From Myxococcota bacterium (GTDB lineage: Bacteria > Myxococcota_A > UBA9160 > UBA4427): a DNA stretch of 64,000 nt. Location of the stretch: positions 1,280,001 through 1,344,000 of the forward strand of contig OZ252299.1 in NCBI GenBank assembly GCA_965250285.1. Reading direction: 5' to 3'. The translations under genes were made by a program, and so were the position numbers. Below the pieces are notes generated by a model, which made no database searches, had not been told where the DNA came from, and was given only the letters and a program-made list of their open reading frames with translations. This document shows positions 4,927-33,422 of this stretch, one piece after another (positions within the stretch are counted from its first letter, which is position 1; every line of letters begins with the position of its first letter).

Positions 4927-8553
<3,627 letters not shown>

Positions 8554-28650: not shown

Positions 28651-29475
28651 TTGGATGATCCCAGCCAGCTCGCGTTCTGGGCCAGCCTCCTCGCCGGGGC
28701 CGTGATCGGCGCGTGGGCGGGCTTCTCGGCGACGTCGGGTTGGATCGTCGTCTTCCCGCTGCTCTTCGTCGTGGCCGAGCGACCGCTCTTCGAGTGCCTG
28801 CTCGCGTCGCTCGTCGTCGACTGGTCGTGCGCCTTCGTGGCGGCCGTGTCGTACGTGCGCCGCGGCGACGCCGACGTCGGCTTCGCGGTGCGCTGGGCCG
28901 CCATCTCGGTCCCCCTGGTGCTGCTCGGCGTGGGCATCGCGGTGAGCGTGCTGCCGCACCTCGACTCGCTGCTCGGTGGCATCTCCGGGCCGATCGCGAT
29001 CGGCATGGGGCTGCTGCTGTTGCGACGAGCGTGGCGCTCGGGCGCACCGCCGACGGTCGATGCCCAGGACGCTCAGCCGACGGAGGGCCCGCGCCACGCG
29101 ACGGGGGTGCTCCGCGCCGGCCTCGTCGCCAACGGCACGCTGATGGGCATTCTCGGTCAGAGCGGCGGACTGAATACGGCGCTGCTGCTCATCTGGCTGC
29201 GGGGCAAGCCCACGCGCGCCGCCGTCGCGACGGCGGTGCTGCTGGGCGCGATCGTGCTGCCCGTGGGCATCGCCGCCTATCTCTGGGTGACAGCGGGGGC
29301 GGGGGGGCTCTGGCCGGTGCTCGGCCCCTTTGCCCTGGCCAGCATCGCGGCTTCGGCGACGGCGGCGCACCAGGTCGCGCACATTCCCGAGCGCAGGCTC
29401 GAGTTCGTCGTCGCCTTCTGCGTGTTGCTCGCCGGCACCGTCGCGACCGCGCAGCGCTGGATCATGCCGGTCTGA
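28651..29475 (+). CDS. Sulfite exporter TauE/SafE family membrane protein
   Basis: About 8 TM helices with an internal duplication (GAWAGFSATSG / GTLMGILGQSGG). Confidence 0.65.
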   Translation: MDDPSQLAFWASLLAGAVIGAWAGFSATSGWIVVFPLLFVVAERPLFECLLASLVVDWSCAFVAAVSYVRRGDADVGFAVRWAAISVPLVLLGVGIAVSVLPHLDSLLGGISGPIAIGMGLLLLRRAWRSGAPPTVDAQDAQPTEGPRHATGVLRAGLVANGTLMGILGQSGGLNTALLLIWLRGKPTRAAVATAVLLGAIVLPVGIAAYLWVTAGAGGLWPVLGPFALASIAASATAAHQVAHIPERRLEFVVAFCVLLAGTVATAQRWIMPV

Positions 29476-29524
29476 GAGGGGCGAGCCGGGCGCGGGATCG
29501 GGTCGATCCGCGCTGCCTGCGGTC

Positions 29525-30649
29525 CTACAGACCGAGCTGATACATCCGGTGCACCTTCCGCACCTGGCCGTTCAGCGACTCGACGTTGCTGAGCATGCGG
29601 GCCGTCGTCTCCTGGATCTGCACCATCTCGAGATCGGTGAACTGGTCGTGCTCTTTCAGTGTGTTCTCGAGCTCCTGGTAGAGCATCATGTTCGCGCCCG
29701 TCCCCTGGAACTCCGGCAGGATGCCCATGCCATTGACCAGCAGCCACGGGGTGCGCTTGATCTCGCGCCAGAGCCTGAAGAGATCGAACACCCCCACCGT
29801 TCCGCCGCTGCGCTGAAGCACCGACGACAGGTCGTAGAAGCCGAAGAGGAAGCCGACGACCTTGTCGTCGTGGGCGATCAGCTTGATCAGCTCGGGGCGC
29901 GCGATCTGCAGCAGGCTCTTCTTCAGATAGGCGATCTCGTTGGGCGAGAGCTCGTAGTTGCCCGGGTGATCGGCGAGCGTCTCGTAGAACAGATGGACGA
30001 CGTCGTCGGCGAGCCGCTCGAGCTCCTTCTTCTTGCGCAGGCGAAGCACACGAAAGTGGCCGTCGGCCGCCGCCGCATCGGCGCGCTCGCGAAGCGGTTC
30101 AGGCAGCCGTGCGGTCGTGGGCAGATGGAACGAGAAGTTGTCGAGATACTTCTCGAAGCCGAAACCCTCCATGAGAGCGGGGAGCCACGGCCCGTTGTAG
30201 GGCATCATCGTCATCGAGGCGCGATGCTCGAAGCCCTCGACCAGCATGCCGCCGCCGGTCACACCCCCGAAGCCCATTGGGCCGATCAGCTGCTCGAGCC
30301 CGCGGTTGCGCGACCAATCGCGTGCCGCTTCGAGCAGGCGATCGGCCACCGCCCGATCGTCGACGCAGTCGAAGAAGTAGAAGTGTGCGCACTTCATGTC
30401 GTGGGTCGCGTTGTAGCGCGGGTTCTCGAACACGAAGATGCGACCGAGCGCGCGGCCCTCGTGCATCGCCACCAGGAACTCGCCGTGGGCGTGCTCGAAG
30501 AGGGGATGCCGGCGATCGACGAGCTCGGCGACGTCGCCCTTCAGCCACGGCACCCATTGCGGGTCGTCTCGGTGAATCGACGCCGGGAGCGTGTAGAAGT
30601 GCTCGAAGGCAGGGCCCTTCGCATTCTCGACCTTCACGATCTCGGTCAT
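29525..30649 (-). CDS. GNAT-like (YghO-like) protein
   Basis: DPQWVPWL, HPLFEH, GMLVEGFE, MMPYN, GILPEFQGTG; RBS GGAGG. Confidence 0.75.
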   Translation of the reverse strand: MTEIVKVENAKGPAFEHFYTLPASIHRDDPQWVPWLKGDVAELVDRRHPLFEHAHGEFLVAMHEGRALGRIFVFENPRYNATHDMKCAHFYFFDCVDDRAVADRLLEAARDWSRNRGLEQLIGPMGFGGVTGGGMLVEGFEHRASMTMMPYNGPWLPALMEGFGFEKYLDNFSFHLPTTARLPEPLRERADAAAADGHFRVLRLRKKKELERLADDVVHLFYETLADHPGNYELSPNEIAYLKKSLLQIARPELIKLIAHDDKVVGFLFGFYDLSSVLQRSGGTVGVFDLFRLWREIKRTPWLLVNGMGILPEFQGTGANMMLYQELENTLKEHDQFTDLEMVQIQETTARMLSNVESLNGQVRKVHRMYQLGL

Positions 30650-30784
30650 GCGGTCACCTCCATCGTCGGCGTGTCGGGTGGGTCCAAAGGCGCATATCAA
30701 CGCTATCCCACGCGGCGCCAGGCGGCCGCGGGGCCGAAGCCCCGGTCGCTGCTCGGGTCGCGGTGCACCCACCTCATCGGGGCG

Positions 30785-32005
30785 TCAGCGTGATCGGCGG
30801 GCAGCCGACACGCGCAGCGCGATCTGGTGAAAGATCGAGCGAGCAAAGCCGAGCGGGTGGCTTCGCAGCTGGCGCAGGAGCAGCCGGCGAAAATGGGGGG
30901 CGCCGTCCATCGTCGACTTGCGCTGACCGGTCTCACCATGAAACGCGAGGTCGGGCATGTCGACGGGCTCGAGCCCGACATCGAGCGTGAAGTGCTCGGT
31001 GCGCGGTGCCAGGCAGCTGGTGTCGGTGCACGCCTGATAGTGCACGGTCACGTCGATCGGCACCGAATCATGGTCGACCGGTCGACACTCGCTGACGAGC
31101 TCGGCCCGCGGGTAGAATGGGACCACGATGTCGACTCCGTCGTCCCACACGTTCAGCGTCAGGTCGAGCCCGTCGAGCCGCAGGGGACGGGTCGGCGGAA
31201 CCTCGGGGTCGAGCGTCACGAGGCCGTCGGGCCCCGACACCTCGACCCGTGTGGCCACCATACCTTCGGGCACGGGCTCGCCATAGACGTGCAGACCGTC
31301 GCCGAGCGAGAAGCGCACGACGAGCTTGCGAACGATCCCCTGACGCAGGGTGCCGCGACCACCGTGCACGAAGGTCTCGATGCGCACGTCGTCGTCGCCG
31401 CCCGTGAGGGGCGTGTCGTCGGGGCCGGCGAGCACGCCGCCGAGCGCTGCGTCGATCAGACTCTCGGCGCTGTCTCGCTTCTTGTAGCTGTCGTGGAAGA
31501 ACTTCTCGACGACGACGCCGTGCTCGTCGGTGACGTACGTGCCGGGCCAGGGCACGCCGTAGGCCGGGATATCGCCCGGCTTGAGGGCCGTGTTGAGGAT
31601 GCCGTAGCGGCGGATGACCTCGGAGCCCGCGTCGGAGAGCATCGGGTACTCGATGTCGTACGTCTCAGCGAACGCGGCCAACGCGTCGACGTCGTCATAC
31701 GAGATGGCGTAGAGCTTGATGCCCGCCGCCTCGAACTGGGCCTGTGCATCGCGCAGCTCGACGAGCTGCGTAAAGCAGGGGGGTCACCAGACCGCCGATC
31801 GAAAGAACACGACGGCGGCCTTCGAGTCGCCGCGGTCAGCGTGAAAGTCGACCGTGCGCCCGGTGTGGTCGGTGAGCACCCAGTCGGGCAGCCGCTCGCC
31901 GATCGCGGGGCCGGTCGGCGCCTCGTCGGGCATGTTCGCGCGGCCGGGGTGCCCGAGCGGGGCCGGCGCGTCGAAGCCGAGATGGTCGCGTTCGTGAAAG
32001 CTCAT
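30785..32005 (-). CDS. Putative selenoprotein: AhpC/TSA-like redoxin (UxxC) fused to a DsbD-N-like domain
   Basis: ORFs 31784..32005 and 30785..31681 are in frame; reads FFRSAVW-UGA-PPCFTQLVEL; C-terminal YQACTDTSCLAP. Confidence 0.88.
31752..31770 (-). promoter_or_regulatory. Putative bacterial SECIS element
   Basis: CGCAGCUC-GUC-GAGCUGCG hairpin 13 nt after the UGA, with G first in the apical loop. Confidence 0.75.
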
Positions 32006-32048
32006 CGGGTCGAATCCTCACTCGGTGTCGACGTCGAGTCGGTGCGGT

Positions 32049-32618
32049 CTACTCGCCCTTCGGAAAGTTGAAGAGCGGAAAGACCGGCAGGAAACCGTTC
32101 TGGGCGATGTTGAGGAAGCCGATCTGCACGTTCTCGATGTGCTCGGTCATGTTCAGGAACCCGATCTGGGTGCCCGAGCGTTCAGAGACGACGACCCCGG
32201 AGAGGTCGAATGCGCTCGTGCCCTGGATCGCATTGACGAAGGCGATGTTCGCGCCCTGGGGTGCGTCGTTGACGACGTTGATGAAGCCGAGGGTGGCGCC
32301 GCTCGCTTGGCCCTGAACGAGGTTGGCGAACGAGCAGAGGCAGCCGTTCGAATCGCCCTCGACGTACGCCATCGCGAACCACGGGCCGGCGCCCGTGAAG
32401 TCGCGGCTGCGCGCGAGAAGCGCGCCTGCGAGATCGAAGCCGCTCATGCGCTCGCTGTCGCCGTAGAGCAGCGAGAAACGAAACCCGTCGACATTCGGGT
32501 CAGCCGGCGCACGCAGCCCGGCGAACTGGATCTGGGCACCGGCGTCGCCCAGCGCGGGCGCGGCCCACAGAGTGCCCGTCAGCAGACTGATCGACCAGAA
32601 CGCGGCGGCTCGCTTCAA
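32049..32618 (-). CDS. Secreted Gly/Asn repeat protein (LA_2272/VC2662-like)
   Basis: Signal peptide; repeated GxQIGFxN units; FLPVFPLFNF terminus. Confidence 0.7.
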   Translation of the reverse strand: MKRAAAFWSISLLTGTLWAAPALGDAGAQIQFAGLRAPADPNVDGFRFSLLYGDSERMSGFDLAGALLARSRDFTGAGPWFAMAYVEGDSNGCLCSFANLVQGQASGATLGFINVVNDAPQGANIAFVNAIQGTSAFDLSGVVVSERSGTQIGFLNMTEHIENVQIGFLNIAQNGFLPVFPLFNFPKGE

Positions 32619-32705
32619 GGCGTGTCTCCTTCAGGCATGGGGCGGGCTCGGCAAGACGCATAGCGCACGGTGAATCCGCCGACGGCCCCCACGCCCCCGA
32701 ACGCC

Positions 32706-33422
32706 TCAGCCGAAGAAGATCGAGAAGTCGTCGCGAAGGATCATCCAGATCGCGAGCGCGCCCGTCCAGAGCGGAAACACCGTCCAGACGAGGTTCGAGA
32801 GCCCGATGAAGACGAACAGGTCGAACACGCGATGCCCCTCGTACCGGCGGTTGATGATGAAGCTCGTGAAGTAGAGCGCGGTGCCGTAGAACATCTGCCA
32901 GCTGAAGATCACGATGACGATCCCGAGCCACTGCGCCGGAACCCACTCGAAGACGATCGCGATCGGGACCAGCAGCGAGGGCAGCAGCGTCGTGTAACCG
33001 TTGCCGATGTCGATGGCGAAGCCGAACGAGCGCTTGTCGGCGTAGGCCGGGTCGATGACGGCGTAGGCGGCCCACACGCTCGACCACGGGGCAAGCGTGA
33101 AGATCTCGCGCGTCTCGATGCGCCGCGCGAAGAACGAGAAGATGTGTTTCAGCTCGTGACCGCGGGCCGCTTCGCGAGCCGCTTCGTACTCGGCGCGAAT
33201 CGCGTCGGCGTGGCGATGCAGCGCGAGCTCCCAGAAGGCGATCAACGCATTCACGGCAAAGAAGAAGGCGGTCCCGACGAAGTGCACGCTCGGGCTTCGC
33301 CCGGCGAGCCCGGCCAGGGCGAGTGGGATCAGCGTGCCGGTCACGACCAGCAGGGCCACGATCGACCAGATGGGCCAGCTGCGGGCCTGCACCGATGCGG
33401 CGGGGAGGGTGGCTTCCGTCAT
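32706..33422 (-). CDS. EXPERA / emopamil-binding protein (EBP)-like membrane protein
   Basis: WAAYAVIDPAY, QMFYGTALYF and NLVWTVFP resemble EBP motifs; RBS GGAG. Confidence 0.7.
   Translation of the reverse strand: MTEATLPAASVQARSWPIWSIVALLVVTGTLIPLALAGLAGRSPSVHFVGTAFFFAVNALIAFWELALHRHADAIRAEYEAAREAARGHELKHIFSFFARRIETREIFTLAPWSSVWAAYAVIDPAYADKRSFGFAIDIGNGYTTLLPSLLVPIAIVFEWVPAQWLGIVIVIFSWQMFYGTALYFTSFIINRRYEGHRVFDLFVFIGLSNLVWTVFPLWTGALAIWMILRDDFSIFFG

Follow-up and report, generated by a model that had tools for sequence, protein, structure and literature searches.

The stretch of 64,000 nucleotides analysed here (the window) carries on its minus strand a gene that begins with an ATG at 32005-32003, ends with a TGA at 30787-30785 and contains a single internal TGA, codon 74 (31786-31784), within the peptide VFFRSAVW-U-PPC-FTQLVEL (Table 1). 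This one frame, broken at one codon, had been recognised in a preliminary description that omitted the strand, and it stands as read. Without read-through, a list of open reading frames of at least 80 aa contains only a 298-aa piece downstream of the internal TGA. The two domains proposed in the same description, a Prx-like (AhpC/TSA) redoxin and a DsbD-N-like domain containing YQACTDTSC (residues 323-331), were both recovered by Pfam models and predicted folds, the second with an invariant Cys pair.

Table 1. Features of the predicted selenoprotein gene (window coordinates).
Feature	Position	Strand	Basis
Whole gene, 406 codons, one UGA read through, second TGA as stop	30785..32005	-	Frame reading; orthologues
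Shine-Dalgarno-like GAGGA, 9 nt 5′ of the ATG	32015..32019	-	Sequence reading; presumed function
Polar N-terminal arm, residues 1-31, conserved; not a signal peptide	31913..32005	-	Invariant residues; hydropathy
AhpC/TSA (Prx-like, thioredoxin-fold) domain, residues 35-167	31505..31903	-	PF00578, E = 5e-30, 104 bits (cut-off 26)
Codon 74, an in-frame UGA predicted to encode the Sec of U-P-P-C	31784..31786	-	TGA in 80/80 loci; Cys in homologues
Cys77, second residue of the UxxC motif	31775..31777	-	Invariant in 80/80
Hairpin resembling a bacterial SECIS (8-bp stem; GUC loop beginning 21 nt past the UGA)	31752..31770	-	Published model; synonymous constraint; one compensated pair
nDsbD-like immunoglobulin domain, residues 198-350	30956..31414	-	PF11412, E = 8e-7, 29.5 bits (cut-off 25); Foldseek
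Cys326-x4-Cys331, aligned to nDsbD Cys103/Cys109	31013..31030	-	Both invariant in 80/80; profile alignment to 1L6P
Extension at the C-terminus, predicted as a hairpin plus two basic helices, of which the first is amphipathic	30788..30955	-	Model; shorter in other relatives

Upstream on the same strand, 43 nt away, lies a gene for an exported-looking VC2662/LA_2272-repeat-like protein (32049-32618; 123.8 bits against a cut-off of 140), and downstream, also on the minus strand, a GNAT-family acetyltransferase-like gene (29525-30772; PF00583, E = 2.5e-6); neither is a conserved neighbour. About 45 nt past the gene's stop there is a G+C-rich hairpin with a UUCG loop and no T-run (30729-30742, minus strand), a possible RNA stability or termination element, and a promoter scan of 29000-33200 returned no sites. 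A look through RNA runs listed none that carries the gene, which is neutral as evidence. No neighbour was conserved across 82 loci: the commonest family occurs in 17 of them, with no fixed side or strand, and the neighbours seen in the window are absent from the 45 largest clusters; no conserved neighbour in these loci names a donor or a substrate. In one Halieaceae record (L061, from position 4992 onward; protein P0100) the reading frame continues into a glutathione S-transferase to give a 725-aa protein, either a real fusion or an assembly error, and genes resembling glutathione S-transferases lie near several other loci.

Conservation and predicted decoding of the in-frame UGA

Full-length orthologues were found in 11 of 40 relatives, each with one TGA at codon 74 and with a terminator that varied in place and codon (TAG, TAA or TGA). 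In a GTDB scan, from which the best 80 of 155 relatives were taken and in which one of the two search patterns demanded a Cys codon, TGA stood at codon 74 in all 80 loci. These loci share 49-99% pairwise identity (median 61%) and span Myxococcota, Halieaceae and other Gammaproteobacteria, Rhodospirillaceae and single records of other phyla; they are related by descent, so that counts over them overstate independence. Among the carriers a named strain, and not a metagenome bin, is the marine gammaproteobacterium HTCC2080 (L101). A Cys-homologue query matched 35 of 151 genomes of the order, and all 39 listed matches contain TGA, and the 30 loci fetched from these matches all have it at codon 74, a set that overlaps the 80 loci and is not additive to them. 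U74, C77, C326 and C331 are invariant in the 80 loci.

Cys was found at the UGA position in protein P0095 and in locus L119 (TGC), the latter being the one full-length homologue among six matches of a metagenome scan for a Cys version; 38 of 46 longer representatives, hand-picked from 150 matches plus P0095, read CxxC. The host genome (6.25 Mb, 68.6% G+C) encodes selA (492 bits), selB (317 bits), selD (281 bits) and selC, the tRNA-Sec gene (62.6 bits), each scoring above its curated cut-off. A relaxed tRNA scan of this genome gave many noise matches, which were set aside. The selD match (C1:5312234-5313154) has no internal stop and sits within a 781-codon open frame; this could represent a fused SelD without Sec, comparable to the Ndh-SelD forms treated in passages of PMC2398784. 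Among 50 carrier genomes, hand-picked from the 80 loci for spread and mostly metagenome bins that may be incomplete, selA was present in 48, against one scoring genome among 14 controls.

The preliminary description had named three observations that would speak against selenocysteine, and in each case we found the reverse: the genome has the Sec machinery, homologues carry TGA or Cys at the UGA position, and assembled contigs from three public runs of one study show TGA and no other letter at 31784-31786; two of the three bridge the codon by the rule of the tool used, and one may be the source of the same DNA.

It is very improbable that the TGA is a genuine stop, arose by sequencing error or has been reassigned, by which the locus would be a pseudogene, a pair of genes or a gene with UGA as Trp or Cys. 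Against these explanations stand the public-run contigs, which read TGA, and the 80 loci, drawn from several phyla, all of which have TGA at codon 74 and keep both halves of the gene in frame. Termination at codon 74 would leave a thioredoxin fold truncated at the active site, and reassignment is at odds both with the gene's own terminator, which shows that TGA is still a stop in the host, and with tRNA-Sec being the only tRNA with a UCA anticodon at the default threshold. What favours these explanations is that read-through is deduced here from sequence and that the protein-database entries are for the most part downstream pieces of some 320-340 aa. Gene callers split the gene at the UGA, nearly all of 120 listed database matches beginning downstream of the active site. 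In a search of NCBIfam none of the 12 matched models reached its cut-off, the SelL-related NF040769 scoring 32.9 against 120 and the WAxxUGC model NF041054 15.5 against 300. Codon 74 is very likely read as selenocysteine, and the gene is a real, well-supported predicted selenoprotein of a kind already known.

The same genome holds a paralogue (L125; C1:2345597-2346712, minus strand) with 48% identity, a TGA at UxxC and the C-terminal Cys pair kept; its hairpin has 6 bp and a loop of 5 nt, and it groups with the Cys form P0095. Four more candidate Prx-like selenoproteins, with TGA at 2320738 (-), 2490359 (+), 3873825 (+) and 4544202 (+) of C1, read W-U-P-x-C and have hairpins 16 nt downstream. 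The host also has two separate full-length DsbD-type genes, one of them near a Sec redoxin with a hydrophobic N-terminus: the candidate at 3873825 has such an N-terminus, a full-length DsbD-type gene being some 2 kb away.

A SECIS-like hairpin behind the UGA

The stem starts 13 nt 3′ of the UGA and the loop 21 nt 3′ of it, so that the 8-bp hairpin with a G-led loop described earlier is as reported. In the passages of PMC13188914 that set out the bSECIS model, the loop has 3-9 nt with G in one of its first two positions, the stem 4-16 bp, the distance from the UGA is 16-37 nt and the energy at most -7.5 kcal/mol; with a 3-nt GUC loop, 8 bp, 21 nt and a centroid energy of -17.5 kcal/mol the hairpin fits this model in a scripted rendering of it, used in place of bSECISearch. 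By itself the hairpin is weak evidence, because its fold energy is ordinary (80-nt fold, z = -0.20 against shuffles, 85 of 200 shuffles being as stable) and because hairpins of at least eight Watson-Crick pairs with the same geometry follow 1789 of 126,687 genomic TGA triplets, or 1.4%; with six pairs as the minimum the share is 24%.

It is conservation of the hairpin, and not its energy, that carries the case for a SECIS element, and selection on silent sites is the strong evidence. Thr79 is encoded by ACG in 79 of 80 loci and Glu83 by GAG in all 80, both as the stem demands, whereas none of 128 conserved columns outside codons 74-87 reaches 97% use of a single codon and the commonest codon accounts for 53-66% at each of the four remaining conserved Glu columns. 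Covariation is thin, with one of 10 pairs doubly changed, in two of 12 sequences. In a count over 79 loci, which left out one with an N, 19 have A.G as top pair, their loop being widened to 5 nt by it; pairing is lost at 19:33 in five loci and at 21:31 in two. The stem is broken in the TGC-bearing L119, a single natural control and the only Cys-codon homologue with DNA. A shorter alternative hairpin, favoured by the folding program in some loci, was rejected with its loop about 11 nt from the UGA, under the model's 16 nt.

Domain architecture and predicted location

The full-length predicted model (pLDDT 84, pTM 0.85) places the U/CxxC motif at the start of the active-site helix, and its N-domain matches structures of BCP, ResA and AhpE, the closest solved structures being BCP/PrxQ and AhpE peroxiredoxins. 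The peroxiredoxin motif PxxxT/SxxC is absent from all 80 loci, which read S70-x-x-x-U74-x-x-C77, and so is the catalytic Arg that precedes the penultimate strand, the invariant Pro154, which we take to be the thioredoxin cis-Pro, being aligned with the Arg of 2CX3, 2YWN and 5ID2. Since both are missing, a disulfide reductase is likelier than a classical peroxiredoxin, and the N-domain likely combines a Prx-like fold with a disulfide-reductase role.

The Pfam DsbD_N match covers residues 226-341. Folded alone, the C-domain reached a pLDDT of 90.5, and its ten best Foldseek matches were all nDsbD or ScsB-alpha (E = 4e-6 to 1e-5; TM 0.48-0.56 by query length), followed by adaptin ear domains from E = 5e-5. 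A profile search of the PDB returned just three sequences, all nDsbD, at non-significant E values of 1-1.6, and a single-sequence search of the PDB gave nothing significant. In the profile alignment His239, Tyr241, Gln324, Cys326 and Cys331 correspond to nDsbD Tyr40, Tyr42, Gln101, Cys103 and Cys109, active-site residues whose roles are discussed in sections of PMC3137068. A hairpin at residues 273-288 of the model could serve as the cap loop, which in DsbD and ScsB shields the Cys pair with an aromatic residue, in a region where the profile alignment is unreliable.

Residues D7, G10, A13, P14 and R22 of the N-terminal arm are invariant among 67 aligned rows. A crude hydropathy test found a hydrophobic stretch 5′ of the active site in none of the 80 loci, which agrees with the preliminary statement that no signal peptide was evident, and a search for transmembrane segments found no 19-residue window with a mean hydropathy above 1.65 in any of them. 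A start codon lies at most 13 residues from the conserved arm motif in 70 loci, the pattern finding no such start in the other 10, and at most 12 open codons precede the motif in 26. By a similar crude test, the N-terminus is signal-like in 27 of the 38 CxxC relatives and not in the other 11. A cytoplasmic location is probable on these features: with no signal peptide and with the basic amphipathic tail described below, the clade likely uses in the cytoplasm an nDsbD module that is normally periplasmic.

The tail that follows the last Cys is about 70 residues long in the group of Sec rows and P0095 and 16-35 residues long in other matched relatives, one tandem protein excepted. Its helix 369-382 has a family mean net charge of +5.0 and a hydrophobic moment of 0.54, and the second tail helix is missing or cut in eight of the 80 loci. 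A tree of 46 rows, made by a quick method, unites the 20 Sec rows and P0095 in one group (SH-aLRT 100) and gives a Myxococcota bin as the gene's nearest named row. Two signal-peptide-bearing relatives, P0189 and P0195, keep a version of the N-terminal arm with an altered first motif (SxxC in P0195) and may mark a link between exported and cytoplasmic forms. In P0125 the redoxin/Ig unit is duplicated in tandem in one 616-aa chain, the second copy having the motif WSSYC.

Known relatives and a proposed thiol-disulfide relay

Both the selenoprotein subfamily (2008) and the fusion type (2021) are already known. Supplementary dataset S1 of Zhang and Gladyshev (2008; PMC2398784), drawn from the GOS dataset, contains 13 reads with RSAVWU, listed as predicted selenoproteins after the heading 'Prx-like 1', a group that shares the PF00578 domain and the UxxC motif with the gene. 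Twelve of these reads were examined, and 10 belong to this subfamily, most of them with the same N-terminal arm and with WUPPCWTQLGELRDA; of the remaining two, one is paralogue-like and one a signal-bearing relative. The reads are partial, and the full architecture, location and tail of the subfamily are not described in the sections available of that paper. Passages of PMC13188914 catalogue Prx-like UxxC oxidoreductases, with a rhodanese fusion as their sole mention of DsbD. Passages of Xu et al. (2021; PMC9402790) report Prx-like (U/CxxC) proteins fused with Pfam11412, there called 'DsbC' (DsbD_N in our copy of Pfam), and suggest that the extra conserved Cys are redox-active. These and the gene product have the same two Pfam domains in one chain, and the fusion of those passages may be this clade or an exported one, signal-like N-termini and short tails being common in relatives and absent here. 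Literature searches, with most subscription papers outside their coverage, returned no study of a cytoplasmic form, and the less explored part is the signal-less form with its basic amphipathic tail and inferred internal relay.

The gene product shares with the DsbD/ScsB alpha domain the Ig fold, the active-site residues and the pairing with a thioredoxin-fold domain. Unlike DsbD and ScsB, it has neither a transmembrane domain nor an export signal, its cysteines are spaced Cx4C against Cx5C in DsbD, and its thioredoxin-fold partner is N-terminal and Sec-bearing. Plant SOQ1 and human NHLRC2 (thioredoxin-like, NHL and nDsbD-like C-terminal domains) also hold both folds in one chain; they use Cys and have an NHL propeller that the gene product lacks. 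The likeness is taken as one of analogy only, and SOQ1 is absent from the 36 matches shown of the C-domain fold search. According to portions of its bioRxiv report (10.1101/2021.03.16.435614), the two domains of SOQ1 bind each other with a Kd of 8.76 uM and interdomain disulfide exchange is proposed.

The product is likely a cytoplasmic thiol-disulfide reductase with its own predicted nDsbD-like recharging domain. We propose that SelB-tRNA-Sec would bind the hairpin so that Sec74 is inserted; that the Sec74 selenolate would attack an oxidised substrate, most likely a disulfide, with Cys77 resolving to give an Se-S bond; that Cys326 and Cys331 would reduce this bond, within one chain or between subunits; and that a cytoplasmic thioredoxin-fold donor, proposed because nDsbD exchanges with thioredoxin-fold partners, would re-reduce the Ig domain. 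The basic amphipathic tail may tether the enzyme to the membrane on its inner side. The relay is not literally 'self-contained', as it had been called, because an outside electron donor and a substrate are needed. Electron exchange between the redoxin and Ig domains is reasonably probable. Flow from the Ig domain to the Sec domain is a tentative choice of direction, close to evenly balanced, and the complete sequence, from attack by Sec74 and resolution by Cys77 to recharging by Cys326/Cys331 and by cytoplasmic thioredoxin, is held just as provisionally, somewhat short of an even chance.

In the main rival reading electrons flow the opposite way: the Sec domain, with thioredoxin reductase, thioredoxin or a small thiol as its donor, would hand them to the Ig domain, and this to another thioredoxin-fold protein, as in a soluble DsbD without its membrane domain. 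We regard this as rather unlikely, given that no conserved client gene lies nearby and that Sec usually occupies the substrate-attacking position. In its favour, the same four redox residues are invariant, and thioredoxin fold to Ig domain is the direction of DsbD and, as proposed, of SOQ1 (PMC3137068; bioRxiv 10.1101/2021.03.16.435614). A Sec-dependent peroxidase, in which a selenolate that lacks the peroxiredoxin triad would reduce membrane-associated lipid hydroperoxides or H2O2 and be recycled by the Ig domain, gains from the peroxiredoxins closest in structure to the N-domain and from a tail that could bring the enzyme to lipids; it is improbable all the same, with PxxxTxxC and the catalytic Arg missing and with the Caulobacter PrxL, a Prx-like Cys protein of a different CDD subfamily, having shown no peroxidase activity (PMC3322552). 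Least probable of the three is that the domains do not exchange electrons, the Ig domain being a binding or oligomerising module and C326-C331 a structural pair or one for a separate partner. The pTM of 0.85 suggests a fixed, rigid arrangement of the predicted domains, which is the counterpoint to a relay, and sequence similarity to solved nDsbD is weak; against this, both Cys and the residues flanking the nDsbD active site are invariant, and a structural disulfide is unlikely in the cytoplasm.

For the family as a whole there is a broader and more speculative reading, which we consider possible though doubtful: a widespread clade in which the periplasmic DsbD-alpha electron shuttle would have moved to the cytoplasm, joined a Sec redoxin and docked on the inner membrane by an amphipathic tail, as a minimal bacterial counterpart of the thioredoxin-to-nDsbD relay proposed for SOQ1 and NHLRC2, with Se-S/S-S exchange in one chain. 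If the relay is true, the protein would offer a small soluble system in which selenosulfide/disulfide exchange could be measured for an nDsbD fold that is not periplasmic. A full-length model of the gene would correct annotation in at least 35 of the 151 genomes of the order that were searched, and in Halieaceae, Rhodospirillaceae and others.
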